DNA from: Gammaproteobacteria bacterium
Lineage (GTDB): Bacteria; Pseudomonadota; Gammaproteobacteria; Steroidobacterales; Foliamicaceae
Reading direction: 5' to 3'
Assembly (NCBI GenBank): GCA_026707445.1
Contig: JAPOWV010000011.1
Coordinates: 19,927 to 83,926, forward strand
DNA length: 64,000 nucleotides
The notes below the pieces were generated by a model that saw only the letters and a program-made list of their open reading frames with translations, did no database searches and had not been told where the DNA came from. Positions 4,250 through 49,896 of this stretch are shown piece after piece. Both the position numbers and the translations under genes were made by a program. Each line of letters opens with the position of its first letter. Positions within the stretch are counted from its first letter, which is position 1.

Positions 4250-6315
4250 GTCGCGGGGGTCAGGCGGAGGTTCGAGAAGCGGTCCACTCGCGCCTGCCAA
4301 CCTGGCGGGATGGCGGTGGTGGTGTCGGGCTGCTCGACGATCGCGGGGCCTTCGATGCGGTGGCCCGGCTTGAGAGCGGAGCGCCGGTAAAACGACGTCG
4401 CCGGCGCTTCGGTCGCGCCGGGGAAGCGGCAGGGTGCGGTCAGCAGCGGCTCGGCGTCTTTCGAAGCCGCGTCCGCATCCTGCGCCGAAACGAGCGGCTT
4501 GCCGGGCACGTACGCGGACACGCCCAGGTTGATGACCCGCACGGGCATGTCCGGGTAGGCGCGCAGATAGGCGCGCTCGTGCTCCGTGTCGAAGCGCTCG
4601 CGCAGCGCCGCGGCCCACTCTGCATCGATGTTGCCGGGCGGCGCGTCCACCGCCAGTTCGTTGCCCTGGCCGGCATAGCGGCACTCGGCCCACAGTTTCA
4701 GGCGTACTTCGTCCGCGCCGAACCCGTCGCCGGCCAGCCGTCGGGTGGCTTCTTGCGTCATTTCATCGAAACGGCCGGACACGGCCGCGTAATCCAGGTC
4801 TTCCAGATCGCCCCAAAGCGTTGCCTTGAATTCATAGCGCACCTGCGCGCACAAGAGCCCGCCGGCCGCGCCCACGCCGGGGTGCGGCGGGATCAGCACT
4901 TCGCCGATGGCCAGCGCTGCGGCCACCGGCGCGGCGAAGGCCCCGCCCGCGCCGCCATAGGCTACCAGCGTGAATTCGCGCGGGTCAAAGCCCTTGGACA
5001 CGCTGGCCAGGCGCATCGCCTCGACCATGTTGTTGACCGCGATATCGAAGATGCCCCCGGCGGCGTCCTCCAGCGTCAGGCCCAGCGGCTTCGCGACGTG
5101 CCGGCGGATGGCGCCGCGGGCACGGTCGGGCGTCAGCGTGGAGACGGCGTCCGCCAGGTGATCGGCGCGGTACCAGCCGCTGACCAGAAGCGCGTCGGTA
5201 ACGGTCGGGTGTTCGCCGCCCTTGCCGTAGCAGGCCGGGCCGGGATCGGCGCCGGCGCTCTGCGGGCCCACGCGGAACATGCCCTCGGGGTCCAGCCAGG
5301 CGATCGAGCCGCCGCCGGCGCCCAGCGTGGCGATATCGACCATCGGCGTCATCACGTCGTAGTCGCCGACGCGGGTATCGAGCAGGCTGCGCATGCGCAT
5401 TTCGCCTTCCGGGGCCACGCCGATGTCCGCGGACGTGCCGCCCACGTCCAGCGTGATCACGTTCCCGCGGCCGATTTCGGCGCCGGCCTCGATGCCCGCG
5501 ATCAGCGCGCCGACCGGTCCGGAAAGCAGGAGATTGACCGGACGCCGCCAGGCTTCGGCCGGGGCGACCATGCCGCCGCTGGAAGTCATCAGGCGCAGTT
5601 GCGCCGGCACGCCCGCTTCCTCGAGCGCGGCGGCGAACCGGCGCACGTAGCGGCCGGTCACCGGGCCCACGTAGGCGTTCATCGCGGTGGTGGAGAAGCG
5701 CTCGTATTCGCGCACCAGCGGCGCGATCTCGTGGCTGGCGGTGACGTAGGCATCGGGGAACTCGCGCCGGGCGATTTCCGCGATGCGCCGCTCGTGTTCC
5801 GGGTTGAGGAAGGAGAACAGGCAGCAGACCGCGATGGATTCGACGCCCTGGTCCCTGAGAAGTGCAACGGCTTCGAGCACGTCGTCCTCGTTGAGCGGCA
5901 CTTCGACCTCGCCGTCGGGCGCACGGACCCGTTCGCGCACAGTCGTCCGCCAGCGGCGCGGCGCCAGGGGACGGCTCTGGCGGGCGATTTCCTGGTAGTG
6001 CGAGAAGTTGTACGGGCGGTCCTTGCGCCCGATGTGCAGGACGTCGCGGAAACCGCGGGTGGTGATCAGCCCGGTCCTGGCGCCCTTGCGTTCCAGCAGC
6101 GCATTGGTGGCCACGGTGGTGCCGTGACAGCAGAACTCGATGTCGGCGAAATCAAGTCCGGCCTTGCGCAGCAGTTCTTCTGCGCCCTGCATGGCCGCGC
6201 GGGCCGGGTCGTCGGGCGTGGAGGCGAGCTTGTGGGTGGCCAGGACCTGTCCGTCGCGGCCGGCGGCGATGAGGTCGGTGAAGGTTCCGCCGATGTCGAT
6301 GCCGATACGCGCCAA
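4246..6315 (-). CDS. Hydantoinase A / oxoprolinase family protein
   Basis: ORF 4246..6363. The TTG at 6315 gives the family-typical N-terminus (M)ARIGIDIGGTFTD. A second ATPase motif, LDVGGTSADI, is present. A start at 6363 (GTG) is also possible. Confidence 0.85.
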   Translation of the reverse strand: MARIGIDIGGTFTDLIAAGRDGQVLATHKLASTPDDPARAAMQGAEELLRKAGLDFADIEFCCHGTTVATNALLERKGARTGLITTRGFRDVLHIGRKDRPYNFSHYQEIARQSRPLAPRRWRTTVRERVRAPDGEVEVPLNEDDVLEAVALLRDQGVESIAVCCLFSFLNPEHERRIAEIARREFPDAYVTASHEIAPLVREYERFSTTAMNAYVGPVTGRYVRRFAAALEEAGVPAQLRLMTSSGGMVAPAEAWRRPVNLLLSGPVGALIAGIEAGAEIGRGNVITLDVGGTSADIGVAPEGEMRMRSLLDTRVGDYDVMTPMVDIATLGAGGGSIAWLDPEGMFRVGPQSAGADPGPACYGKGGEHPTVTDALLVSGWYRADHLADAVSTLTPDRARGAIRRHVAKPLGLTLEDAAGGIFDIAVNNMVEAMRLASVSKGFDPREFTLVAYGGAGGAFAAPVAAALAIGEVLIPPHPGVGAAGGLLCAQVRYEFKATLWGDLEDLDYAAVSGRFDEMTQEATRRLAGDGFGADEVRLKLWAECRYAGQGNELAVDAPPGNIDAEWAAALRERFDTEHERAYLRAYPDMPVRVINLGVSAYVPGKPLVSAQDADAASKDAEPLLTAPCRFPGATEAPATSFYRRSALKPGHRIEGPAIVEQPDTTTAIPPGWQARVDRFSNLRLTPAT

Positions 6316-6377: not shown

Positions 6378-7763
6378 ATGGTTCGTGCGGCCATGGGTGC
6401 GCTGACCGAATCCGTTCTTGATTTCCTCTGCGGCGACGCTCCGGTGCGCGCGCCGGATAAAGCCCGGCGTATCGCCGTGACCGGGTTCATCGACTGTATC
6501 GGCGTGGCCCTGGCGGGAGCGGACCAGCCGGTGGTGCGCAACCTGCTGAAGTCCGACGGCGGGGGCGAGCCGGAGTCGCGGTTGCTGCTGAGCGGCGAAC
6601 GCCTGCCGGCCTCCGCCGCTGCGCTGATCGGATCCGCCGCCGCCCACGCTCTCGATCTCGACGACTACGCGTTCGCCAACCACACCAGCGCGGTGCTGGT
6701 GCCGCCGATCCTTGCGGAAGCCGAGGTGGTGCGGGCTTCCGGCGCCCGCATGATTGAAGCCTATCTGGCGGGTTACGAAGTCTGGAGCGTCCTTGCGCGG
6801 CGGGAGCAGACCTACATGCAGGGGGCAGGGTGGCACCCGACGGGCGTTTACGGCCCGGTGGGAGCGGCGGCCGCGCTCAGCCGCTTGCGCGGCATGCCCC
6901 GGCGCGAGACAGGCAACGCGCTGGGCCTCGCCGCAGCCGCGGGGGGCGGCGTGATGGACAACTTCGGGACGCAGGCCAAGCCCTACCAGGCCGCGCGCGC
7001 AGCGGAAGCCGGCGTGGCGGCGGTGCGCCGCGCGTTGGCGGGCCTGGACGCGGGGCCGCACGCACTGGACGGTCCGGGCGGCTTCCTGCAGACGATTTCT
7101 CCCAACGGCCACGTGGACCGCGCCTCGGCCGCCACGGAACTCGGCAAGGATTGGTACATGGCCGAACACGGGCTGAACATCAAGCGCTACCCGGTCGTGG
7201 GCGCGGCCCAGCGCTGCGTCGATGCGGCCCTGCAACTGCACGCCGACCACGGCCCGGAAGCCGCGGCGATCGAGCGTGTGACCGCGCGCGTCAGCGAGGC
7301 GCACTCGTCGGTCATGCAGTTCCGCCTGCCGGCCGATGCCATGCAGGCCAAGTTCAGCCTCGAGTTCGCGGTGGTCGCGCCGCTGATCTTCGGGCGCCTG
7401 GGTTTCGCGGAAATGCGCGACGAGTGCGTGCGCCGCGACGACGTGCAGTCGCTGATGCGGAAGGTGGAGCGGGAAGAAGGCGCGGACGACGATCCTGTAT
7501 ACCCGGTGGGGGCGCGCCATGACTCGGTGCGTGTCGCGCTAGCCGGCGGAACCGCGCTGGAGAGCGAGCCGGTCCATCGCTACCGTGGGCATGGGCAGAA
7601 CCCGCTTTCCCATGACGAGCTGCGCGCCAAGTTCATGGATTGCGCGACGGTTACCGGCGCAGTGCCCGAGGATGTGGCTGCCGATCTGTTCGAGCGTCTG
7701 TCGCGCCTGGAGGAACTGGACGGCGTCGGTGAACTTACTGAATTACTAAATATATCAGTATGA
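6378..7763 (+). CDS. MmgE/PrpD family protein, paralog 2
   Basis: 461-aa ORF with a PrpD-like layout (AAHALDLDDY, WHPTG, KRYPVVGAAQ). Divergent from hyuA across about 60 bp. The last about 10 codons are unusually AT-rich. Confidence 0.8.
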   Translation: MVRAAMGALTESVLDFLCGDAPVRAPDKARRIAVTGFIDCIGVALAGADQPVVRNLLKSDGGGEPESRLLLSGERLPASAAALIGSAAAHALDLDDYAFANHTSAVLVPPILAEAEVVRASGARMIEAYLAGYEVWSVLARREQTYMQGAGWHPTGVYGPVGAAAALSRLRGMPRRETGNALGLAAAAGGGVMDNFGTQAKPYQAARAAEAGVAAVRRALAGLDAGPHALDGPGGFLQTISPNGHVDRASAATELGKDWYMAEHGLNIKRYPVVGAAQRCVDAALQLHADHGPEAAAIERVTARVSEAHSSVMQFRLPADAMQAKFSLEFAVVAPLIFGRLGFAEMRDECVRRDDVQSLMRKVEREEGADDDPVYPVGARHDSVRVALAGGTALESEPVHRYRGHGQNPLSHDELRAKFMDCATVTGAVPEDVAADLFERLSRLEELDGVGELTELLNISV

Positions 7764-30259: not shown

Positions 30260-31038
30260 CCGAACTGCTCCAGGACCTTCTGGCGGGAATCGCCGCGGAC
30301 AAGCTCAAGGTCGTCGACCTTACGCACACGCTGGGTCCATCCTTTCCCCAGCTCAGCCTGCCGCCGGAAATGGGCCAGGCGCTGCCTTACCGAAGCGAGG
30401 AGATTTCCCGCTACGACGGCCGCGGCCCCGCCTGGTACTGGAACAACTTCACGCTCTGCGAGCACACCGGAACGCACTTCGATGCGCCGATTCACTGGGT
30501 TTCCGGTCGCGAGCTGCCCAACAACTCGGTCGATACGATTCCACCCGAACACATGATCGCGCCGGCCTGCGTGATCGACTGCACCGCCGACGCCGAGCAC
30601 GACGCCGACTTCCTGCTGACCCGCGAGCGCCTGGAGGAATGGGAGGCCGAGCATGGCCGGATCCCGGCCGGCTCATGGGTGCTGATGCGCACCGGCTGGG
30701 CGCGCCGCGTGAACGATCCGGTGGCGTTTCAGAACTTCGACGAGATCGGCCAGCACACGCCGGGCCCGGACGTGGATTGCGTCCGTTTCCTGGTCGACGA
30801 GCGCGACGTGCTGGGCTTCGGCACCGAGACCATAGGCACCGACAGCGGCCAGGCGCAGCGGCTGAATCCGCCGTATCCCTGCCACTACTACATGCACGGC
30901 GCGGGCAAGTACGGACTGCAATGCCTGAACAACCTCGACCGGCTTCCGCCCACCGGTGCGGTCCTGTTCACCGCCCCGCTCAAGCTGGAGGAAGGCTCCG
31001 GCAGCCCCCTGCGCGTCCTCGCCCTCACTCCCGCCTGA
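30256..31038 (+). CDS. Putative cyclase / kynurenine-formamidase-like metal hydrolase
   Basis: HxGTHxDxPxH motif (CEHTGTHFDAPIHW). GTG at 30256 forms a GTGA overlap with the upstream stop. The ATG at 30223 is an alternative. Confidence 0.75.
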   Translation: MTELLQDLLAGIAADKLKVVDLTHTLGPSFPQLSLPPEMGQALPYRSEEISRYDGRGPAWYWNNFTLCEHTGTHFDAPIHWVSGRELPNNSVDTIPPEHMIAPACVIDCTADAEHDADFLLTRERLEEWEAEHGRIPAGSWVLMRTGWARRVNDPVAFQNFDEIGQHTPGPDVDCVRFLVDERDVLGFGTETIGTDSGQAQRLNPPYPCHYYMHGAGKYGLQCLNNLDRLPPTGAVLFTAPLKLEEGSGSPLRVLALTPA

Positions 31039-31064
31039 AAGCCCGCCCGCGACGGGACGCGGCA

Positions 31065-31292
31065 TTAGCCGCCCTGCATAACCCTTGGGGCCGGACCGCT
31101 CCCGGTCTGAGGCGTCGAGGCCATCATGATCCCTTTCAGTTCCCCGATCGCGAGCGCGTTCGCGTGTCCCTGCTTCTCCAGCCGCTCAAGAATATCGCGG
31201 TTGGCGCGCACCTCGGCGATCACTTCGTCCAACCGTTCTTCCGAGAGCGTATGAAGATTGTCAATGGCGGTGGCAATCCGTTTGATGTCCAT
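31065..31292 (-). CDS. Small hypothetical protein (75 aa, helical/coiled-coil-like)
   Basis: Internal ATG at 31292 of ORF 31065..31370, preceded by AGGAGG 5 nt upstream. MDIKRIATAIDNLHTLSEERLDEVIAEVRANRDILERLEKQGH... No motif recognised. Confidence 0.45.
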   Translation of the reverse strand: MDIKRIATAIDNLHTLSEERLDEVIAEVRANRDILERLEKQGHANALAIGELKGIMMASTPQTGSGPAPRVMQGG

Positions 31293-31473
31293 ATATTCCT
31301 CCTGTTCACGCCCGCCACTCAGACATAACGCCCACCCTTCAGGCTCATGTCCGTATTGGATTACGCTCACGGAAGGTAGCAGTGCCAGCGCTCATGTAGA
31401 CTCGCCGTTGACCGGTTCTATGCCGTCGCCGTCTCTTGGGCATTCATTCACTATAATTTGGGAAAGAAACGCA

Positions 31474-32670
31474 ATGAACTTCAAAGTCTACGGTCCATTC
31501 AAGCTCAATACAGAGTCTGATACCAGATGGATTGATCAAGCAGAGATCAAAAAATTCTGGGTCGAGGTGGCGAAGCATGAAAACCTGGGAAAAGCCTGCG
31601 GCGTGTATTTGTTTTGTGTTGAAGGCAAGCAGAAGGGGGTGAGTAAGACTACAAACCTGCCGTGGTATGTGGGTAAAGCAGAGAGACTGACTTTCAAGCA
31701 AGAGTGCTTTAACCACCGAAATCAGCTTTCATACAACAAGGTCATTTCGCAACTGTATAGAGAAGTTACCGCAATCCACTTCTATTTCGTTGCTCGCCAT
31801 GATGAGGACGGAAAGTTCTCCGCTCCCGCCAAGAAAGATGAAAAAACACCATATGAAGGAGTGCGCTTAGTTGAACGATTATTTATGCGAAAGTCACTGG
31901 CGGCGAATAATGACTTATTGAATATGAGGGACTTGACGAACGCAAGACGAACACGCATAAGGAACATATTGAACTGGTCGGTTCCAGGGAGAGACGATAG
32001 CAGCGTAAGGGCGCTCAAGGACAGCCTGGGCATCAATGATCATGTATCGCTTTTAGAGGACGAGTCTGATGCGAAGAATTTGTATCAGGTGTATGGTCCG
32101 TACCACTTCCCCACTTATAAGACTACTACTAAAGCAGTAGGCAAGGAGTTTATTTCAGCGTTCTGGGATCAATTTGCCAGTAAGCCCAAAAGCATACCCG
32201 ATTTCCCTAAAGCGACTGGTGTGTATGTGATCGGAGTTCGTTGGAAAGATAGCATCACTCCGCACCACATTGGAACAAGTAAAAGAACCTCGTATCAAGA
32301 TGCCTGGAAGGGGGAGAGAGGTCGGATTGCCGGCATCGTCCGACAACGAGGCGCGCCAGTTGTTTTCTTTTTGCCAAGAGTTTCCCCTAAGTCACATCAC
32401 AAAGTCGAGAAAATCAAGAAAACTTCCTCGATATCGAAGAATATGGAATTTGTCGAAAAATGGCTCCTTAGATACGGCATCGCAAAGAACCGAGAGATCA
32501 CTACTGGTGAGGGCGAAACTGCCAACATAATGAGAAAATTGCATGTTGAAGGATTTATCAAGCCCCAACGCGGAAAGCGGAGCAAGTCAGTCAGTCAGTT
32601 AAGGGAATTGTTCGAGAAGAAGAATAAACAGGAGGGTGAACGGCGAACTGCGGATTCTGCCAAGCAGTGA
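31474..32670 (+). CDS. Hypothetical protein with an internal duplication, two GIY-YIG-like modules (398 aa)
   Basis: ATG at 31474 within ORF 31258..32670. aa 5-190 and aa 206-398 align: VYGPF/VYGPY, FW/FW, GVYLF...YVGKAER / GVYVI...HIGTSKR, FYF/VFF, VERLF...N / VEKWL...N. Basic C-terminal tail. The CDS call is fairly secure. The nuclease-fold assignment is inference. Confidence 0.6.
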   Translation: MNFKVYGPFKLNTESDTRWIDQAEIKKFWVEVAKHENLGKACGVYLFCVEGKQKGVSKTTNLPWYVGKAERLTFKQECFNHRNQLSYNKVISQLYREVTAIHFYFVARHDEDGKFSAPAKKDEKTPYEGVRLVERLFMRKSLAANNDLLNMRDLTNARRTRIRNILNWSVPGRDDSSVRALKDSLGINDHVSLLEDESDAKNLYQVYGPYHFPTYKTTTKAVGKEFISAFWDQFASKPKSIPDFPKATGVYVIGVRWKDSITPHHIGTSKRTSYQDAWKGERGRIAGIVRQRGAPVVFFLPRVSPKSHHKVEKIKKTSSISKNMEFVEKWLLRYGIAKNREITTGEGETANIMRKLHVEGFIKPQRGKRSKSVSQLRELFEKKNKQEGERRTADSAKQ

Positions 32671-32695
32671 AGTTGAAAACGGAGCTATCGGTGAT

Positions 32696-33499
32696 TTAGC
32701 CTGAATCGTCTTGTTCGGAGCGCCTTGAACATTTCGAGGCAGGGCTTTGCATCTTGCGGGCACGAAGGACGACGGGTGTCGGTTGATCTTCCACAACGCG
32801 GTAGGCTACGAATACGTGCTCGCGGCCGGCGTTTGGGTTGGGAACTTCTGTAGTCGTCATTTCGTTCGTGCGCAGATCGAAGCTGTAAACCACGACAATC
32901 TGATCTACTTCTCGCCGAGTCAACCTGCCAACTTCAACCAGGTCGTCATCGACTGCGTGCTCTTCGGGAAGAAGCAGGGTTCGGTTATGTGCCGTGCCTT
33001 TTGCAAGCGCATACGGGGTTGGCGCCACGTACATCTTGCGGTCTCGGACCAGGATGTCGCCGTAGCTGCCGAAACCGCGAAAGCTCTTGTTCTCATGGAC
33101 ATACGTGTTGTCGGCGTTGAGAAAGCTGCCGTGGCAAATTACAAGATCAAGCACGGGATATTGATCACCGTCAGGCTTCCTGGGATAGCGTCCGAATACG
33201 TAGTAAACCTGCCGGCCGTTATGTTCGCCGCACGGTGGCTGACTGTTGCAGTCATAGTTGGCCTTGCGGCCCGGATAGGCGAGCCCCTTGAGTTCGAAGC
33301 CTTCCGTAAACTTGACAAGCCGGAAATCGGGGTAGGAATTGCGGCCGGGCGAGTCAAAGTTGAGGCCCACGCCTTCGAGTCTTGCCTTGAACCAATTCTG
33401 GAAATGGAACTCCTTGTCTCTCCGGCCTTCACGCTTTATGAGGTCTCCGCGATCCATCGCCTGAACGCAGGCCTTGAATAGAGTCGAGGCGTTGGACAT
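32696..33499 (-). CDS. PD-(D/E)xK nuclease-fold protein (candidate restriction endonuclease)
   Basis: 267 aa. E30 (KEFHFQNWF), P57-D58 (SYPDFRLV) and E69-L-K71 (GFELKG) give a canonical E...PD...ExK arrangement. Starts 3 nt after the methyltransferase stop. Confidence 0.55.
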   Translation of the reverse strand: MSNASTLFKACVQAMDRGDLIKREGRRDKEFHFQNWFKARLEGVGLNFDSPGRNSYPDFRLVKFTEGFELKGLAYPGRKANYDCNSQPPCGEHNGRQVYYVFGRYPRKPDGDQYPVLDLVICHGSFLNADNTYVHENKSFRGFGSYGDILVRDRKMYVAPTPYALAKGTAHNRTLLLPEEHAVDDDLVEVGRLTRREVDQIVVVYSFDLRTNEMTTTEVPNPNAGREHVFVAYRVVEDQPTPVVLRARKMQSPASKCSRRSEQDDSG

Positions 33500-33502
33500 G
33501 CC

Positions 33503-35758
33503 TTAACCCGCTTCAACGCACATGCGTGGTTCCTGCTGGAGCGAATGTGCTTGATCGATCATCGCATTCGCCTTGGGCAGTGATTCGTCCAGCAGGCGCA
33601 GGGCCAGTTCGGTCGATGGCAGGTGCGAGAGTTCACGCAAAAGTTGGGCCATTACGATAATGCGCGCATCATTGCGGCTAAGGCTGCGTCCAGCTTCAAT
33701 CAGCCGAATGACCTGCTTCGTTACCCGAGTTTCAATCGGCCGGCAAATATCTCCATTCACCGAAATCGCTTTTAGCTGCGACCGTTTGCGGCACACTACA
33801 ATGATATCGAGATCAATAGGCTCCTTGGCTTGATGCTTGGGCATCGCAACCGACATTTCAGCCTTGATCGGGTGGGTTGCGGTGACTCCGAACCCTGAGT
33901 CCATGAGAGCACGCAGGACACAACGCCAGCCTTCGGGCCGGGAATGGTGATAAGTAAAAGCGAGCACCCCGTCATCCTTCAGAACACGGCAAGCTTCTTG
34001 CAATACGCTGCACAGGCGATCGGCGAAGTCGTCCGCTTCCGCGGTCTGCACTTCACGAGCCGAGCGCGTTGTATCCTTCAGCCGGGATCCGTCCGGGTCG
34101 AGAATGTGACGCTGCCAAACATGGAAGAAATCGGCAAGCTGCGAGTAATGGACATTGTCGAAAAAAGGTGGGTCAGTCAGGACGGCATCTACGGAAGAAT
34201 CCGGTAAGTCAGTCGCGCTGGAATCCCCGCAGGATAGATAAACGTGCCGGCCCTCAGAGAATTCGGTGTAGCTGGTTGCCGTATCGAACCCTATGTTTTC
34301 GGACAAGCCATATACCTTGTTTGTGGTCCGCTTCTTTGCCCTCGTGACAAGCTGGAGTTCGAAAGGGTTGTCTGCATAGTCGAGCGCACGCCGTATGCGG
34401 CCCTCGAACATCGTAGTGAATGATCCTGAACTCTTTGGCGTGCCCCAAAGGTTGGCTTCCAGCGGCGTCCGTTCGGGCTTGAGAATGTGGTGAGCGAACA
34501 TGTGCCGGACAGCCCCGGTGCCTTCGCCCTTATAGGAGGCAAACATATTGTTGAACTCCAGTGCGCCGGAAAAAAGGCAGGTAAAGAGCTCGCGAATGAC
34601 AGGGTCGCCGATTAACCTGATCCGATCAGCCAGAATTGATAGACATAGCAATTGGCGAGCGTTGAACATCTCGTGCCAATATCGGTAGTTGTACCCCAAG
34701 ACCTGATTCGTGTTATAGCCGGGGCAAATCTTCACAACCGGAAACGGGTCATTCCTGGTAGCAAGCAGACGCTTTGCCTCGTCATAGAGTTCGCGGTCTT
34801 CGTCTGAAGCGGGAAGATAGGCTTTTGTCCCGTCAGGCATGAGAACGAGCTTGGCATACAGACGGTGATCCGGCGGGATGTCTTCCGCCCGAATCGACTT
34901 GACTATTCGGAAGCTGTCGGCGCAGTGGGGACATGTCGCTATCTGTCCATTTGCCGGGCCACGGTTTGGGTCGAAGGACTCCCCACATGAACAACAGCGC
35001 TTCTCAGTGTCCTGTATGTGGACTTCATTGATCGCATCGCAAGACGGACAAACAGCCTGTGCTCTCGGGAATTTTTTCGGGTATGCGTGCTGCGCGAAAA
35101 TCATCGAAGAAAAGAGGTCAACGGATTCTTCGCAAGATGGGCACTCGACCACCTTTACCCAAAAAAAGTAAAGCACGTCCGCGAATTTGCCGTCGGGAAG
35201 CTGAGTACTGTAGAAGTTTCTTATTCTGTCGGCGACATCATTTTCAATTGCACGAAACGTACTGAGGATGGCCTTGCGGTCATGGACGGAGAGCGCGCAC
35301 TTCACCAGGAAATGGGCAACCGGGTTGATATCGCGGCCCACTGCCCGCGCACCCAATTTGGCCGCCTCCAACAGCGTTGTGCCGCTGCCCATGAACGGAT
35401 CGAAAACAACCCGATCCCGAATGCGCACCGGTTTGTGGAAGAGTTCCAGTTGGTTAATTCCGCTCGGCGCAAACGTACCGATTACCATTGCGCGGAATAC
35501 GGTCCCAAGTCTCTGTGCCCACCATTTGTGAATATGGGTTGTAGGCCGGTTGATTTCCTTTCTCCAACTTTCCTTCTCGGCAATTTCGCTTAGCGCTTCA
35601 AAAGGAAAACTCTCGTCCTCGATCGCACGCGGACCGGAAGTCGGTGTCAGATGGATGACTGCTTCCGAGGCATCTTCGAAAGGAAGCTGGAGAGTGCTGT
35701 CCGCATCCGCAAAGGTCTGCCAGCGAGATAGGGAACTCGATGTACTCATGGGAGGCAT
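33503..35758 (-). CDS. DNA methyltransferase with Zn ribbons (DUF1156/COG1743-like, probably N6-adenine)
   Basis: 751 aa. DUF1156-like N-terminus (FPFEALSEIAEKESWRKE...HIHKWWAQR...RA). SAM motif I VFDPFMGSGTT (aa 118-128). CxxC pairs at aa 206/209, 237/240, 255-258 and 276/279. FNARQLL. Motif IV TDPPFF (aa 528-533). Confidence 0.85.
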   Translation of the reverse strand: MPPMSTSSSLSRWQTFADADSTLQLPFEDASEAVIHLTPTSGPRAIEDESFPFEALSEIAEKESWRKEINRPTTHIHKWWAQRLGTVFRAMVIGTFAPSGINQLELFHKPVRIRDRVVFDPFMGSGTTLLEAAKLGARAVGRDINPVAHFLVKCALSVHDRKAILSTFRAIENDVADRIRNFYSTQLPDGKFADVLYFFWVKVVECPSCEESVDLFSSMIFAQHAYPKKFPRAQAVCPSCDAINEVHIQDTEKRCCSCGESFDPNRGPANGQIATCPHCADSFRIVKSIRAEDIPPDHRLYAKLVLMPDGTKAYLPASDEDRELYDEAKRLLATRNDPFPVVKICPGYNTNQVLGYNYRYWHEMFNARQLLCLSILADRIRLIGDPVIRELFTCLFSGALEFNNMFASYKGEGTGAVRHMFAHHILKPERTPLEANLWGTPKSSGSFTTMFEGRIRRALDYADNPFELQLVTRAKKRTTNKVYGLSENIGFDTATSYTEFSEGRHVYLSCGDSSATDLPDSSVDAVLTDPPFFDNVHYSQLADFFHVWQRHILDPDGSRLKDTTRSAREVQTAEADDFADRLCSVLQEACRVLKDDGVLAFTYHHSRPEGWRCVLRALMDSGFGVTATHPIKAEMSVAMPKHQAKEPIDLDIIVVCRKRSQLKAISVNGDICRPIETRVTKQVIRLIEAGRSLSRNDARIIVMAQLLRELSHLPSTELALRLLDESLPKANAMIDQAHSLQQEPRMCVEAG

Positions 35759-35964
35759 CCGGGAAACCCATTGAGCCAGAGAGGCATAGATGAGCGCTAA
35801 TTTACACGATATGGAAGGAGCGCGCGCAATTATCTACTAACGCTAATCTCACGACTGCCTGAGCGATGTCCTGATGGATGGAAGCTTGCATAATATTTAC
35901 AAGTGCTTGCATTGTCCTGCTGCGCGCATTACCTATCATCAGACTTCAGGAGGAAACCCTGTCC

Positions 35965-36768
35965 ATGCGCATTCAATTCTCAAGCGGACTCGTTTTCATT
36001 GCACTTCTTGCGGCGCCCGTTTACGCAACGGCCCAGGTGGAAATCATCGAGCCCCAAGACCGCTCGCCGGGTATCGTCAAGATCGCCCGGGGCACCACCG
36101 AATGCCGGGAGCCGTCCAGGGACAACGCCCGCTGCGCCACCGAATACTGGACCCTGTATTTCCATGCGGACGGCAGCCGCTATATGCACGTGGTCTCCGA
36201 CAACATGCGCTTCGGCCAGGCGCGCCACGCCATGGTCTGGATCGATCCGAAGGGCGACACGCGGGAGGCTTATCTCAACACCTGGACCCAGGACGGCGTG
36301 ATCGGTTCGGCCTATGTGGTGAAGCGGGAAGACAGCGTGGACGTGGCGGCCTCAGACCTCCAGTTCGAGCGGGCCGGCGAAGGCATGATCCGCGAAGAAG
36401 TGAATGCGCTCGCCCGGCTGGACTCCATCGGCGTCGGGCCGGCCTCGGCCGACGGGCTTCATTTCCTCCACTACGACTTCGACGCGCCCGGCAAGCAGCC
36501 TCACGGCATCTACTGGATGGGCGGCACTCTGCACGGGACGATGGTCGGCGTGATCGCCCTGTCCCAATACACATATCTCGGCGAAGAGGAGATCACGATC
36601 GCCGACGGCAAGACCTTTCCGGCCGACAAGTTCGAGATGGTCAGCGGCACGAAGGTGTGGCTGACCAAAGAGGACCGAATCCTGCTGCGCATGGATCTCG
36701 TTTTCGGCGCGGCCTACGGCTCGATTTTCGAAACGGTCAGCCTGGACATCACCGAGGTGGGGTCCTGA
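35965..36768 (+). CDS. Exported hypothetical protein
   Basis: ATG at 35965 (AGGAGG upstream) gives the signal peptide MRIQFSSGLVFIALLAAPVYATAQ. GC returns to the host level. No motif recognised. Confidence 0.6.
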   Translation: MRIQFSSGLVFIALLAAPVYATAQVEIIEPQDRSPGIVKIARGTTECREPSRDNARCATEYWTLYFHADGSRYMHVVSDNMRFGQARHAMVWIDPKGDTREAYLNTWTQDGVIGSAYVVKREDSVDVAASDLQFERAGEGMIREEVNALARLDSIGVGPASADGLHFLHYDFDAPGKQPHGIYWMGGTLHGTMVGVIALSQYTYLGEEEITIADGKTFPADKFEMVSGTKVWLTKEDRILLRMDLVFGAAYGSIFETVSLDITEVGS

Positions 36769-44828: not shown

Positions 44829-45168
44829 CCGGGATCTGAAGCTACCGCCGATTCCGGCGAAACGCCTCTTCACCATCGGCGAGGCCAGCGCGCTTTGCCA
44901 GGTGGAACAGCATGTGCTGCGTTACTGGGAAAAGGAATTTCCGCAACTCAATCCCACCAAGCGCCGCGGCGGGCGCCGCTACTACCAGCCGCAGGACATC
45001 ATGCTGATCCGCCAGATCCGGCATCTGCTGCAGGTTGAAGGCTATACGCTGGCCGGCGCCCGGCAGCGCCTGGAAGGCGAGGATTCGCGCCAGGACCAGA
45101 GCCACATGAAGCAATTCGTTCGCCAGATGCGGGTCGAACTGGAGGAATTGCACCGTTTGCTGCGGTAG
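44812..45168 (+). CDS. MerR family transcriptional regulator
   Basis: [28 protein letters not shown]. Conserved position after ihfA. GTG start overlaps the ihfA end. Confidence 0.8.
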
Positions 45169-45172
45169 CGCG

Positions 45173-45206
45173 GCCGCCACGCAATTGAACCTGCACCCGG
45201 TCCGGG
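45173..45206. repeat. 34-bp direct repeat, copy 1 (matches the tRNA-Pro upstream region)
   Basis: gccgccacgcaattgaacctgcacccggtccggg compared with copy 2 gccgccacgcgatagaatctgcacccggtccggg (47298-47331), 31/34 identical. Confidence 0.8.
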
Positions 45207-45258
45207 ACATGACCGGGGAGCAACGGATGATTACCGCGCCCGGCTGAGCGCCGGCAGG

Positions 45259-45780
45259 ATGTCTGTCGTCATTCCCATACTGCTCGTGCTTGCCCTGCTG
45301 TGGGTGCTGCTGGCGGTGGTGGCGGTTCAGCCCGAACCGTCCGTCCCCAACTCGTTGCCGCACCCCGACATTGACGGAATGATGGCGGGAAGCGACGGGC
45401 TGGCGCGCCTGGCGGAGATCGGCTTGCCGGCTTTTTCACTGCAGGCGGCAACGCTGATCCTGGTTGTGCTGATGATCGCCCTCGGCGTTTCCAGGCGCTA
45501 TAGGACTTTGCCATTCTGGCTGGGGCTGGCCGCCACGGCCATCCTGTTCCTGTTCGTGTGGTCGCGCATTTTTCTCGGACATCAGCACTTTCTGAGTACG
45601 GGGGAGGTTCACTACGTGCTGGGATTCCCGGCGCCCACGGCGTGGGTGGGCTACGGCATCTGGGCTTCCGGTCTGGCGCTCCTGCTGCTGTACGTCCTGG
45701 GCTTCCGGAAGTTCATCTACACGCACGAAGACGAGGCCGAGTTTGAGCGCCTCGTGCAGGAACTCCCGGACGGCGAGTGA
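45259..45780 (+). CDS. Small integral membrane protein (about 4 TM) coupled to the symporter
   Basis: 173 aa with hydrophobic segments (VVIPILLVLALLWVLLAVVAV and others). Stop overlaps the symporter start. Confidence 0.6.
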   Translation: MSVVIPILLVLALLWVLLAVVAVQPEPSVPNSLPHPDIDGMMAGSDGLARLAEIGLPAFSLQAATLILVVLMIALGVSRRYRTLPFWLGLAATAILFLFVWSRIFLGHQHFLSTGEVHYVLGFPAPTAWVGYGIWASGLALLLLYVLGFRKFIYTHEDEAEFERLVQELPDGE

Positions 45781-47276
45781 TGGAAGCGCTTCGTTCCGAG
45801 ATCATCCTCGGCTTCGTTGCCGCCTACCTGGTGTTCTGTGTCGCCGTGGGGCTATGGGCCATGCGGCGTACGCATTCCGCCGGCGATTTCTTCGTGGCCG
45901 GCCGCAGCCTGGGGCCGTTCGTGGTCGCGATGGCGATTTTTTCCAGCACCCTGAGCGGCTTCGGATTCGTGGGCGGGCCCGGGCTGGTGTACGCGACCGG
46001 CGTCAGTTCGCTGTGGATGGTGGCGGTGTCGGCGATCGGCTACGGGGTCGGCTTCTGGCTGGTGGCCAAGCGCATCCGCATGGTGACCGAGGTTCGCCGC
46101 TGCCTGTCGCTGCCCGACGTCGTCGCGGCCCGCTACAACAGCGAGGGCGCGCGTTTTCTGACCGCGCTGACCATCCTCCTCGGCGTAATGGGTTACCTGG
46201 CTACGCAGATCCTTGCCCTGGCGCTGGTCATGCAATCGATCCTGCAGGGGACCGAGGCCTTCGCCGGCGTCAGCCTGGTCAGCTGCGTCCTGTTCGCCAC
46301 CGCCATCCTGGTCTTCTACAGCGTCACCGGCGGCATCATCGCCTCGGTCTATACGGACCTCGTGCAGGGTGCGGTCATGATCGTGGCCGGCCTGCTGATC
46401 GTCATCGTCGCCGCCAACGTTTTCGACGGCGGCATCGAGCAGGCATCGGCGATTGTCCTGGCGGACAATTCCGAAGCGATGATGCCCTTCGGCACGGCAG
46501 GGATCATTGCCTGTTTGAGCTGGTTCTTCATTTTCGGGTTCGGACTGGCGGGCCAGCCGCACCTCATTACCAAGATGATGATGAACAAGCGGATTTCGGA
46601 TAACCGCACGATCTACCCGATGTCGGTCTTCGGCTACATCATGGCCGCGCTGTTGTGGGTCTCGGTGGGCATCGTAATGCGCGCCGTGGTGCTGGACGGC
46701 GGCCACGATCCGCTGGGGGCGCCGGACGCCGCTGCGCCCGCATTCCTGTCGGCCTTCGCTCACCCCCTGCTGGCGGGCGTGGTGTTTGCCGCCTTGCTCG
46801 CGGCCATCATGTCCACGTCGGACGCGTTTCTGAATATCGGCACCGCGGCGGTCATTCATGACATTCCGATCGCAATCCGGGGCCGGTCGCTGGATCGCGA
46901 GCTTCTCTGGGCGCGCGTATTCACGATCGTGATCGCAGCGGTCGCGGCCGGCTTCGCGCTGTTTTCCTTCTACCAGAACGAGCGTCTCGTTGCGATATTG
47001 GGGGCCTTCGGCTGGAGCACCTTCGCCGCCGCCATCGTTCCGGTCGTCGTCATCGGACTGAACTGGAAGCGGGGCACGGCCCGGGGTGCGGTCGTTGCGG
47101 TGCTTGCCAGCCTCCTGATCAATTTCGGCATCGAGATACTCCCGATCTCGCTGCCGAAGGACATCAACGGCGGCTTTCTCGCCATGCTGACGTCCATCAC
47201 CCTGTTCATCTGCGTATCGCTGCTCGACAAGCGCCCGAAGCACGCTCCGGAGATGGCCAGGATCATGAAGATCTGA
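45777..47276 (+). CDS. Sodium:solute symporter family transporter
   Basis: 499 aa, polytopic. The N-terminal region (GDFFVAGRSLGPFVVAMAIFSSTLSGFGFVGGPGLVY) is typical of the SSF family. Confidence 0.85.
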   Translation: MMEALRSEIILGFVAAYLVFCVAVGLWAMRRTHSAGDFFVAGRSLGPFVVAMAIFSSTLSGFGFVGGPGLVYATGVSSLWMVAVSAIGYGVGFWLVAKRIRMVTEVRRCLSLPDVVAARYNSEGARFLTALTILLGVMGYLATQILALALVMQSILQGTEAFAGVSLVSCVLFATAILVFYSVTGGIIASVYTDLVQGAVMIVAGLLIVIVAANVFDGGIEQASAIVLADNSEAMMPFGTAGIIACLSWFFIFGFGLAGQPHLITKMMMNKRISDNRTIYPMSVFGYIMAALLWVSVGIVMRAVVLDGGHDPLGAPDAAAPAFLSAFAHPLLAGVVFAALLAAIMSTSDAFLNIGTAAVIHDIPIAIRGRSLDRELLWARVFTIVIAAVAAGFALFSFYQNERLVAILGAFGWSTFAAAIVPVVVIGLNWKRGTARGAVVAVLASLLINFGIEILPISLPKDINGGFLAMLTSITLFICVSLLDKRPKHAPEMARIMKI

Positions 47277-47297
47277 AGCGATTCGTGCGCCGGCGCA

Positions 47298-47327
47298 GCC
47301 GCCACGCGATAGAATCTGCACCCGGTC

Positions 47328-47331
<4 letters not shown>
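47298..47331. repeat. 34-bp direct repeat, copy 2 (tRNA-Pro promoter/leader, includes TAGAAT at 47310-47315)
   Basis: See copy 1. The last 4 nt are the first 4 nt of the tRNA. Confidence 0.8.
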
Positions 47332-47404
<73 letters not shown>

Positions 47405-47431
47405 TTTTCGTTTTGCCGACCCGAATCAATC

Positions 47432-48493
47432 ATGGGCCAGACCCTTCAGCGTAGTTCCCTGTTAGTGCTGGTCGCCGCGGTCACCGCGGCGTTCATCCTG
47501 CTGCTGGCCGACCTCCTGTTGGCGGTGTTCTGGGCCGTAGTGCTGGCGATTCTCTTTCACGGCCTGTACCGGCGCCTGGTCCCGCGGCTTTGGAACAGGC
47601 AGTCGCTGGCGGCTGCCGCCGTCCTCCTCGTCGTGCTGGCCGGCGTGGTGGCGCCGGTGCTGCTGCTGGGATGGGCGGTGGTGGGCGACGCCAGCGAGTT
47701 CTATGCCGCCGTCGAAAGGGGCGCGCTGGATCCCGGGAGGGCGCTGGATGCGCTTGGCGCCTGGCTGCCCTGGGTGCGGGAAATCCTGGACAACTTCGGA
47801 CTGGATTTCGAGCAGATGCGTTCCGGGCTGACTTCGATGGTCGGCAACGCCGCGCGCTTCGCTGCGACCGGGCTGGTCGCCGCCGGGCAGGGTGCGCTGA
47901 GGCTGATGCTGCAGTTGGTGGTGATGCTGTATCTGCTGTTCTTCTTTCTGCGCGACGGCGACAAGCTCGTCGATACGCTCGTTCGCATCCTGCCGTTGGG
48001 CGACGAGCGCGAATACGAACTGCTGGGCCAGTTCGCCACCGTGTCCCGGGTGAGCGTGACTTCCCTGGTCGTTATAGGCGCGGTGCAGGGCGGACTTGGC
48101 GGCGTCACCCTGGCGCTGCTGGGAATCGGCAGCCCGGTCCTGCTCGGTGTTCTCATGGGCGTGCTGTCGGTCATTCCCGCCGTGGGCCCGGGACTGGTGT
48201 GGGCGCCGATTGCAATCTGGCTGTTCGCGTCCGGCATGTGGGTGCAGGGTCTGATCCTGGTCATCGTCGGCGTGCTGATCGTGGGGCTGGCCGACAATCT
48301 CTTGCGGCCGATGCTGGTGGGCCGGACCGCGCGGCTGCCGGACTACGTCGTGCTGCTGGCCACCCTCGGCGGGCTCTCGGTATTCGGGTTCTCCGGGCTG
48401 GTGATAGGGCCGGTCCTTGCGGCGCTGTTCTTTGTTTCCTGGCGATTGTTCGAAGAGGAATTTTCGCCGGCGGAAACCCGGGATGAGCCATGA
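47432..48493 (+). CDS. AI-2E family transporter (PerM/UPF0118-like)
   Basis: ATG at 47432 in ORF 47360..48493. Multi-TM protein with family-like LFFFLRDGDKL and GLADNLLRPMLVG stretches. Confidence 0.8.
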   Translation: MGQTLQRSSLLVLVAAVTAAFILLLADLLLAVFWAVVLAILFHGLYRRLVPRLWNRQSLAAAAVLLVVLAGVVAPVLLLGWAVVGDASEFYAAVERGALDPGRALDALGAWLPWVREILDNFGLDFEQMRSGLTSMVGNAARFAATGLVAAGQGALRLMLQLVVMLYLLFFFLRDGDKLVDTLVRILPLGDEREYELLGQFATVSRVSVTSLVVIGAVQGGLGGVTLALLGIGSPVLLGVLMGVLSVIPAVGPGLVWAPIAIWLFASGMWVQGLILVIVGVLIVGLADNLLRPMLVGRTARLPDYVVLLATLGGLSVFGFSGLVIGPVLAALFFVSWRLFEEEFSPAETRDEP

Positions 48494-49896
48494 ACACGCG
48501 CTCCGTCCACCGCGAGCTTGCCTCGATCGTCGGCGAGCGGCATTGCGTTGCCGACGCTGCGCTGCTTGAGCCCTGGCTCGAGGAGCCCCGCGGGCGCTAC
48601 CACGGCGAGTCGCGGCTGCTGGTGGCTCCTGCCAGCGCGAAGGAAACCGCCGCCGTCCTGGCCTGCTGCAACACGCGGGGGGTCGGAGTGGTGCCGGTGG
48701 GCGGCCGCACCGGACTGTGCGGCGGCACGCATTCGCAAGCCAACGAGATACTGCTGAGCCTGCATCGCCAGAGGCGGGTGCGCGATCTTGACGCCGGCTG
48801 CCTGACCGCCGAGGCCGGCTGCGTGCTGGCCACGCTGCAGGAACGCGCCGACGAGGCGGGCTGTCTGTTTCCGCTGAGCCTGGGTTCGGAGGGCAGTTGC
48901 CAGCTGGGCGGGGTGCTGTCCACCAATGCCGGCGGCATTCACGTGCTGCGCTACGGCATGGCGCGCGAGATGGTGCTGGGGCTGGAGGTCGCCTTGCCCG
49001 ACGGGCGGGTGCTGTCGGACCTGAAGCCGCTGGCCAAGGACAACACCGGCTATGACATCAAGCAGCTCTTCATCGGCTCGGAAGGGACCCTGGGCGTCAT
49101 CACCGCGGCCGCGCTGCGCCTGTACCCGCGACCGCAGGCATGGATTACCGCGCTGCTGGGCGTGGCCGGACCCGATCAGGCGGTTTCGCTTTTCCGCGGC
49201 GCGCAGGCGGCGCTGGGCGAGGAGCTCAACGCCTTTGAACTGATTTCGCGCGGGGCGGCGCAATTGTGCGGGGAGCAACTGGAGGGGGTTCCGATTCCCG
49301 GGGACATCGATGCGCCCTGGCTGTTGTGCGTGGAACTGGCCGGCGCCGGCTCGGAGTCCGCGTTGGCCGAGCGCCTCACCGGTTTTCTGGAAGACGCCCG
49401 CGAGCGGGGCGAGTTGCTCGACGCCGTATGCGCGGTCAGCGAGGCGCAGCGCGAGGCGATCTGGCGCCTGCGCCATGGCGTGCCCGAGGCAATGCGCCTG
49501 TCCGGACCGGCCCTGCGCCACGACCTGGCCGTGCCGCCGGAACGCATTGCCGGGTTCCTCGATTCGGCGCTGGAGATGTGCCGCGAACACTTTCCGGGCG
49601 CCCAGCCCCTGCCGTTCGGACACGTGGGCGACGGCAATCTGCATTACTCCGTTCCCTGTCCGCCCGAAGTCGATCCGGACCGGTTCTCCGAGCAGGGCCG
49701 GCTGCTCAGCGCCGAATTGCGCGAACTGGCATGGTCGATGGACGGCAGCTTCAGCGCCGAGCACGGCGTGGGCCTGCTGCTCAAGGACGAGCTGGAACGG
49801 CTTGGCGATCCCGTCAAGCTTCAGTTGATGCGTGCGCTCAAGCGCGCCCTGGATCCGCGCGGGATCATGAATCCCGGCAAGGTATTGAGCGCATGA
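48490..49896 (+). CDS. FAD-linked oxidase (GlcD / D-2-hydroxyacid dehydrogenase-like)
   Basis: 468 aa. FAD-binding PCMH-type N-terminus (VVPVGGRTGLCGG), C-terminal HVGDGNLHY and SAEHGVG. Confidence 0.85.
   Translation: MNTRSVHRELASIVGERHCVADAALLEPWLEEPRGRYHGESRLLVAPASAKETAAVLACCNTRGVGVVPVGGRTGLCGGTHSQANEILLSLHRQRRVRDLDAGCLTAEAGCVLATLQERADEAGCLFPLSLGSEGSCQLGGVLSTNAGGIHVLRYGMAREMVLGLEVALPDGRVLSDLKPLAKDNTGYDIKQLFIGSEGTLGVITAAALRLYPRPQAWITALLGVAGPDQAVSLFRGAQAALGEELNAFELISRGAAQLCGEQLEGVPIPGDIDAPWLLCVELAGAGSESALAERLTGFLEDARERGELLDAVCAVSEAQREAIWRLRHGVPEAMRLSGPALRHDLAVPPERIAGFLDSALEMCREHFPGAQPLPFGHVGDGNLHYSVPCPPEVDPDRFSEQGRLLSAELRELAWSMDGSFSAEHGVGLLLKDELERLGDPVKLQLMRALKRALDPRGIMNPGKVLSA

Follow-up and report, generated by a model that had tools for sequence, protein, structure and literature searches.

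The stretch of DNA analysed here, called the window, is a 64,000-nucleotide segment of contig JAPOWV010000011.1 from a gammaproteobacterium (GenBank assembly GCA_026707445.1). At positions 31474 to 32670 it carries a gene, hereafter the target gene, whose product contains two related domains in one chain and which an initial annotation had described as two GIY-YIG-like nuclease modules beside a restriction-modification (R-M) pair. A mechanical list of open reading frames (ORFs) opens the longest reading of this frame at a TTG at 31258, with the stop codon ending at 32670. Because the Met of MNFKVYGPF is the first residue in 44 of 44 aligned homologues, we set the start at 31474, which gives a product of 398 amino acids. 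The gene and its parts are listed below with the E values of a hidden Markov model (HMM) that was built mainly from single-domain relatives and matched the target twice.

31474..32670, plus strand: two-copy target gene, a complete ORF of 398 amino acids plus stop, with ATG at 31474, by translation
31474..32034, plus strand: domain copy 1, residues 1-187, HMM match E 2e-44; putative active module
32083..32619, plus strand: domain copy 2, residues 204-382, HMM match E 6e-26; degenerate module
32620..32667, plus strand: Lys/Glu-rich C-terminal tail, poorly conserved, absent or variable in homologues; low-confidence prediction

When residues 1-198 were compared with residues 199-398 by BLASTP, positions 3-148 paired with positions 203-342 at 21% identity over 151 columns, with a score of 36.6 bits. 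Shuffling of the second half (n=300) gave 15.3±2.1 bits with a maximum of 23.5, and none of the 300 shuffles equalled the observed score. When the family alignment of 45 sequences was split into its halves and these were compared by hhalign, the probability was 99.9% and the E value 6.7e-37 over 173 columns. Taken together with the double HMM match, these results confirmed that the target is a tandem duplication fused in a single chain, well beyond chance. The ORF and the two homologous halves described by the initial annotation are therefore upheld, and the residues it quoted are all correct: VYGPF (5-9) and VYGPY (206-210), W29 and W231, GVY (43-45 and 249-251), YVGKAER (65-71) and HIGTSKR (265-271), E134 and E328, and N145 and N339.

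A word-indexed search yielded 61 homologues over the full length, about 365-410 amino acids long and 31-77% identical; all have two copies and none contains a Pfam domain. An exhaustive HMM search with the alignment of the N-terminal half (N-half) recovered at least 1,268 representatives, each a cluster at 50% identity, at E≤1e-3, and 686 at E≤1e-10. Single-domain proteins of 170-185 amino acids make up nearly all of the best 150 representatives, and only about a dozen representatives in this search have two domains. Because most members of this large family are small single-domain proteins, the tandem form is one of its minor branches and a derived one. The family is distributed over Proteobacteria, Acidobacteria, Planctomycetes and metagenome-assembled genomes (MAGs) of sponge symbionts, and its members are labelled just 'hypothetical protein' in the source databases.

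The target protein and its halves had no match in Pfam, PADLOC, NCBIfam or the PDB sequence set, and a search of 117 family members against Pfam, PHROGs, PADLOC and NCBIfam assigned no family to them. The target also had no match among the catalogued defence models of PADLOC-DB 2.0, and the 117 relatives gave just four single-member matches to PADLOC, at E 0.003-0.01. One relative of the 117 weakly matched the excinuclease Cho, a GIY-YIG enzyme, in NCBIfam (E 0.007). Two single-domain relatives carry a C-terminal RAMA or HARE-HTH domain, one of each kind; both domains have been proposed as readers of DNA modification and occur together with nuclease domains in fusion proteins that are candidate Type IV enzymes (PMC11037411). 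The domain family is thus both uncatalogued and large.

To locate the residues under constraint, we examined the 117 sequences for the wider family and 45 homologues for the two-domain form. The GIY-YIG superfamily (Pfam PF01541, clan CL0418) has as hallmarks, besides its two name-giving motifs, an Arg (R27 in I-TevI, R39 in UvrC), a Glu (E75 in I-TevI) and an Asn (N90 in I-TevI). Five columns, G43, Y65, G67, E134 and N150, are invariant throughout the 117 sequences, and those conserved in at least 90% include G7, W29, Y45, F47, P63, V66, F74, E77, I138, N145 and G164. The GIY-like GxY of copy 1 has an invariant G43 and a Y45 kept in 115 of the 117 sequences, and opens the strand 43-53; the YIG-like Y65-V66-G67, invariant or nearly so, closes the strand 59-69. 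E134 is found in all 117 sequences in the middle of helix 128-144 and was aligned by hhalign with I-TevI E75, and N150, also present in 117 of 117, lies 16 residues further on and was aligned with I-TevI N90. Basic residues are less strictly kept: position 71 is Lys or Arg in 80%, position 68 is Lys in 64%, position 75, which aligns to UvrC R39, is Lys or Arg in 53%, position 83 is Lys in 74%, and position 108 is Arg or Lys in 78%. Among the 45 two-domain homologues, copy 1 keeps the whole conserved set of the family, G43-x-Y45, P63-W-Y65-V-G67-K68, F74, E77, R108, E134, N145 and N150; it is invariant at Y45, Y65, G67, A69, E70, E77, C78, N88, R108, E134, N145 and N150, and K68 is Lys in 44 of the 45.

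AlphaFold2 was run with the family alignment, and the full-chain model had a mean predicted local distance difference test score (pLDDT) of 86.9 and a predicted template-modelling score (pTM) of 0.82, with a pLDDT of 87.8 for the N-half alone and of <50 for residues 384-398 in the C-terminal tail. In the model each copy has the order β(2-11)-α(22-32)-β(43-53)-β(59-69)-α(74-78)-α(81-94)-β(95-109)-α(128-144), followed by a short α-β-β-α extension. The GxY stands at the start of the second strand and the YVG at the end of the third, so that the motifs occupy the two arms of one predicted hairpin; E77 falls in the short helix past the hairpin, E134 midway along the long helix, and N145 and N150 beyond the latter. 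The GIY-YIG domain is described as having the order β-β-α-α-β-α (PMC1564403), and from its second strand onward the model of copy 1 follows this order.

To compare the family with known GIY-YIG enzymes, we used sequence profiles. The UvrC GIY-YIG domain 1yd3 was the third-best match of the family profile in the PDB sequence set, with an E value of 0.98 that is not significant alone. In that alignment the family consensus 'eAcGcYvF…pwYVGkaekqsFkkecf' was paired with 'EEPGVYIF…PIYIGKAKRLSNRLRSF', with the GxY and the YxG in register. Since GIY-YIG chains form a very small share (by our estimate, not by count) of the 177,635 distinct PDB sequences, a rank among the top three is notable.

A first attempt with hhalign, in which six T4 Seg/Tev sequences were set against a narrow UvrC alignment, gave only 2.8% for the positive control and was discarded. 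Among the matches listed, the seed searches with UvrC and I-TevI gave close relatives alone (at least 120 at ≥69% identity, and 9 matches, respectively) and were of limited use, and the global mode of hhalign produced an uninformative alignment of 4 columns. We then rebuilt the homing-endonuclease profile from 80 phage I-TevI-like domains of IMG/VR, and the positive control, UvrC against these 80 domains, now reached a probability of 88% and an E value of 3e-6 with the motifs paired correctly. Against UvrC, the N-half alignment gave a probability of 77.5% and the 117-member family 47%, in both cases for the GVY…YVGKA block only. Against the phage set, the E134…N150 block of the family fell on E75…N90. 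When the family was compared with a merged GIY-YIG profile, a single collinear alignment of 105 columns with a score of 20.1 paired GxY with GIY, YVG with YIG, E134 with E75, and N150 with N90. Column-shuffled family decoys scored 11.6±2.1, and none of 59 reached 20.1; UvrC itself scored 30.2 and 36.7, and its shuffled decoys 12.5±2.5 and 13.4±3.0. On these comparisons, the GIY-YIG resemblance is collinear and real at the level of the motifs. The catalytic layout claimed by the initial annotation accordingly survives in part: the GxY, YVG, Glu and Asn of copy 1 are in register with the UvrC and I-TevI profiles, at scores above those of the decoys, and those of copy 2, described below, do not support it.

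Several observations weigh against a GIY-YIG relationship. None of the 117 relatives matched a Pfam model of the GIY-YIG clan, even at E≤10, and the N-half profile had no match among the PDB sequences. Foldseek searches with the full model (against PDB) and with the N-half model (against PDB and BFVD) yielded a best E value of 0.037 and nothing significant, and no GIY-YIG structure was among those named in the list of 50 matches from each search; the non-significant matches included USP28, Cas9, Y-family polymerases and chlorovirus proteins of unknown function. The GIY-YIG fold, a three-stranded sheet flanked by helices, which was tentatively suggested at the outset, is therefore not confirmed by these searches; the order of the predicted secondary-structure elements is compatible with it. 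The family has no invariant Arg, that is, it does not keep the hallmark Arg, and R71, which had been put forward for that role, occupies a position that is basic in only the 80% noted above. Copy 1 has 20 residues from GxY to YxG and copy 2 has 14, where about 10-11 is canonical, and the strands of the modelled domain are 11-15 residues long. The full-length hhalign comparison with the merged GIY-YIG profile had a probability of just 2.9%, the hhalign signal is due mostly to the short GVY…YVGKA block, and the reversed alignment, which is a single control, scored 17.9 for the family (18.9 and 22.4 for UvrC). The RAMA and HARE-HTH fusions were seen once each, and ten further long or extended members contained no Pfam domain at E≤0.01.

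These points could mean that the fold of the domain is new and has no relation to GIY-YIG, and that the GxY, YVG, Glu and Asn likeness is convergent or coincidental and the protein is a new kind of nuclease, a sequence- or modification-specific DNA binder, or a protein of unrelated activity. That high-confidence models lack any significant structural neighbour in PDB or BFVD speaks for such a fold, as does the lack of a Pfam, NCBIfam, PHROG or PADLOC family match, the lack of an invariant Arg, and the extra invariant E77, which is foreign to GIY-YIG. The β-α-β-β-α-β core with its long strands also suits a ferredoxin-like arrangement, and the best of the non-significant Foldseek matches include Y-family polymerase domains, with template-modelling scores ≤0.35. 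On the other hand, no polar residues of the family are as strongly conserved as those at the four GIY-YIG hallmark positions that survive, and these stand in the right order on the expected elements, with a Glu-to-Asn distance of 16 residues against 15 in I-TevI. In addition, three independent sequence searches (PDB profile, NCBIfam and hhalign) each rank a UvrC/Cho-type GIY-YIG protein as a weak best or near-best match. We regard a new fold as possible but doubtful. Judged from the profiles, the domain is less like GIY-YIG than the accepted families of that type are like one another, and it lacks the hallmark Arg. Nevertheless, descent of the domain from GIY-YIG is most likely, as the favoured rather than an established reading.

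We then compared the two copies at the same positions in the 45 two-domain homologues. Copy 2 retains the GxY (G249 in 44 of 45, Y251 in 45 of 45) and much of the scaffold, including P263, W/H264-Y/H265-V/I-G267 with Y265 in 39 of 45, F274, C278-F279, R302, V327 and N339. At the position of K68 it has Thr, at that of E77 it has Arg, Lys or Ala, and at that of N150 it has Leu, Phe, Thr or Ser. Position 328, the equivalent of E134, is Lys in 13, Glu in 9, Arg in 7, Thr in 6 and Gln in 5 homologues, and position 271 is Lys in 12, Asn in 10, Gly in 8, Asp in 5 and Arg in 4. In the target protein itself, Y65, E77 and N150 of copy 1 correspond to H265, A277 and T344 of copy 2. These results showed that copy 1 is constrained like the whole family, whereas copy 2 is relaxed at exactly the invariant polar positions. 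Because copy 2 is without equivalents of E77, E134, N150 and K68, it is degenerate, and the protein has no double active site.

The initial annotation had proposed that R271 and E328 serve as catalytic residues of a second module, and had itself named non-conservation of such residues as evidence against it; neither is conserved among the 45 homologues. The reading as a covalent GIY-YIG double enzyme, with simultaneous cleavage of both strands, could still appeal to Y251, R271, E328 and N339, which copy 2 of the target has. Yet the equivalents of E134, E77, N150 and K68 vary freely in copy 2 and not in copy 1, and the target has lost the Tyr, Glu and Asn at the three positions just given, which makes a protein with both copies catalytic very unlikely. 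The target is probably a nuclease with one active site rather than a double nuclease.

To see what accompanies the family, genome loci of relatives (labelled L below) were examined, and at 28 genome loci the two genes on each side were inspected. No Pfam family recurred among the 76 neighbouring proteins. The homologue lies between SnoaL and Fe-ADH genes at L001 and L004, follows a gene for a thioredoxin-domain protein at L005-L009, adjoins a methyltransferase-HNH fusion at L002, and at L007 shares a defence island with genes for SIR2, an MmeI fragment and N6_Mtase. A minority of the 76 neighbours are related to defence or mobility, namely GajA (E 4e-179), mad3, AriA-like, SduA_C, integrases and one C5 methylase, and many of the loci are purely metabolic in gene content. 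Copies are split across frames or truncated at L004, L013, L021, L042, L049 and L050, which suggests that family members are often pseudogenised. The alphaproteobacterial MAG contig OZ251539.1 (L039, L045 and L047) has at least four single-domain copies in repeated segments that are 82-96% identical. At L039, single-domain copies at 5578-6099 and 6905-7459 are adjacent and unfused on the same strand, an arrangement from which the fused gene could plausibly have arisen.

In tblastn searches of 50,697 phage records and 72,556 plasmids, the two-domain protein had no match, and a single-domain relative had just four weak matches among the plasmids; the family was absent from the phage collection. 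On these searches we rejected a phage or plasmid origin of the target. Taken together, the results on neighbours and copies showed that the target is a solitary, horizontally moving gene.

The target gene nevertheless stands beside two genes that form an R-M pair, and with them lies in an island of low guanine-plus-cytosine (GC) content:

32696..33499, minus strand: 267-residue protein with a PD…ExK motif (P57-D58 and E69-L70-K71), motif read from the translation
33503..35758, minus strand: 751-residue DUF1156-type N6/N4 DNA methyltransferase, by Pfam, PADLOC and NCBIfam matches

The methyltransferase matched Pfam N6_N4_Mtase (2.8e-13), PADLOC MTase_II (4.5e-29) and NCBIfam DUF1156_antiphage (8e-33). 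The 267-residue protein had no family match in Pfam, PADLOC or NCBIfam; judged from its motif and position, it is likely the restriction endonuclease of the adjacent methyltransferase, and it looks like a member of an unannotated restriction endonuclease family. Relatives with 58-64% identity are found on plasmids of Tabrizicola, Acidiphilium, Rhodococcus and Tomitella. On the two plasmids that were inspected, those of Tabrizicola and Acidiphilium, the relative is directly upstream of a DNA methyltransferase gene and the target gene is absent. The inspected plasmid pairs adjoin other defence genes, either DUF262 plus a HEPN nuclease or an AAA ATPase. The R-M pair is therefore an independent module, being equipped with a nuclease of its own and found again on plasmids that lack the target.

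The GC content is 0.44-0.48 in the target gene, 0.52-0.57 in the R-M pair and 0.65-0.70 in the host, and the mosaic of about 0.45 and 0.55 within the island suggests two separate acquisitions. In the island (31000-36000) we found no integrase, no flanking tRNA gene and no convincing direct repeats at the edges, and scans for promoters and terminators were uninformative. Just upstream of the target gene, a divergent ORF of 75 codons lies at 31065-31292 on the minus strand; its 3' end has a host-like GC content, and its product had no significant family match. Elsewhere in the window, the AT skew is strongly negative at -0.24 to -0.26 across about 4 kb (45000-49000), unlike the rest of the window, and this region contains the only tRNA gene of the window, tRNA-Pro at 47328-47404.

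The least probable of the explanations considered assigns the target to the neighbouring R-M system, as its nuclease or as a second nuclease subunit: although the 3' ends of the target and the 267-residue gene are 25 bp apart in the shared low-GC island, the two genes are convergent and differ in GC content, the neighbour already supplies a PD…ExK enzyme, the pair recurs alone, and the homologues have no conserved methyltransferase beside them, with the one C5 methylase noted above among the 76 neighbours. The target was on these grounds rejected as part of the R-M pair, and the link that the initial annotation had drawn between them is incidental.

Our best explanation, to which we give about an even chance, is that the target encodes a stand-alone candidate for a single-chain asymmetric nuclease, a remote and atypical relative of GIY-YIG enzymes with one live site. 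We infer the GIY-YIG relationship, the nuclease activity, the dimerisation and the biological role of the family from the evidence given above. The ancestor would have been a single-domain protein of about 175 amino acids that formed a homodimer with two active sites, as present single-domain members would do, and tandem duplication and fusion of its gene would have produced a covalent pseudo-dimer in the lineage of the target. By analogy with I-TevI and UvrC, copy 1 would be a metal-dependent DNA endonuclease of the GIY-YIG type, in which Y45 and Y65 may flank or act on the scissile phosphate, E134 may bind Mg2+, and N150 may have a structural role in bracing the site. K68, K71 and K75 would lie near the site and could provide the positive charge that replaces the canonical Arg, and E77 is an additional conserved acid of copy 1. 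Copy 2 would be a scaffold only, serving as a DNA-binding or structural partner. With one active site, DNA would be nicked, or its two strands cut in turn. It appears that the target is a horizontally acquired one-gene module, placed next to an R-M pair unrelated to it within a small island of low GC content, and most likely it would act either as an accessory nuclease in defence or as a selfish nuclease.

We tentatively consider a broader proposal, which we would not yet expect to hold, that the unit of about 175 amino acids founds a structurally new class of DNA-acting enzymes, with either a new nuclease fold or a GIY-YIG fold remodelled past recognition by current structure and profile libraries, and that the target is a natural single-chain heterodimer of a live and a dead copy, which would make it a nickase by construction or an asymmetric cutter, with a defence or selfish function carried by this one gene. 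If such readings are true, the family would be a sizeable uncatalogued branch of GIY-YIG nucleases or a new nuclease fold, and the target would show, for proteins other than LAGLIDADG enzymes, how a homodimer is naturally turned into an asymmetric pseudo-dimer by fusion. Such a compact single-chain enzyme, in which one site is live and the other dead, would be a candidate for a nickase of natural origin, and the gene would be a single-gene component of defence islands that is missed by the current catalogues of defence finders. Because no library tested holds an annotation for the family, activity data would annotate more than 1,000 clusters of hypothetical proteins. In the literature searched, we found no live-plus-dead single-chain arrangement of such a domain.

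The family can be compared with several known systems. As in UvrC/Cho and I-TevI, the GxY and the YxG are placed on adjacent β-strands and are followed by a helix with the Glu and, 15-16 residues later, by the Asn, and the 'PWYVGKAEK' of the family is close to the 'IYVGKAKDL' of UvrC. Unlike GIY-YIG domains, the family has no invariant Arg, a motif spacing of 20 instead of 10-11 residues, much longer strands and the extra invariant E77. Its domain of about 175 amino acids is also larger than the GIY-YIG domain of about 90-100 amino acids, with an added N-terminal β-α unit and a C-terminal β-β-α extension, and it is missed by the Pfam models and by Foldseek.

Eco29kI, Cfr42I and Hpy188I are small GIY-YIG restriction enzymes (structures 3MX1 and 3OQG) that act as homo-oligomers, since two catalytic domains are needed to cut both strands; they come with methyltransferases and match the GIY-YIG clan. 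The single-domain relatives of the target would be analogous to these homo-oligomers. The target differs from them in that it has no conserved methyltransferase partner and that its domains are fused, with one of them degenerate. A parallel to such a fusion is provided by I-SceI and I-AniI, which are single-chain LAGLIDADG pseudo-dimers derived from a duplicated and fused homodimer gene and whose halves have diverged. The evolutionary route is the same as that proposed for the target, but the fold and the active-site chemistry are unrelated, and LAGLIDADG pseudo-dimers normally retain both catalytic acids.

Among the Type IV fusions of a nuclease and a reader domain, the wH-GIY-YIG enzymes Ahi29725I and Apa233I and GIY-YIG-RAMA fusions are on record (PMC11037411). 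Like these genes, which are typically solitary, the target stands alone and has no cognate methyltransferase, and two relatives in its family bear RAMA or HARE-HTH domains. Unlike the Type IV fusions, the target itself carries a degenerate second copy of its own domain in the place of a reader domain.

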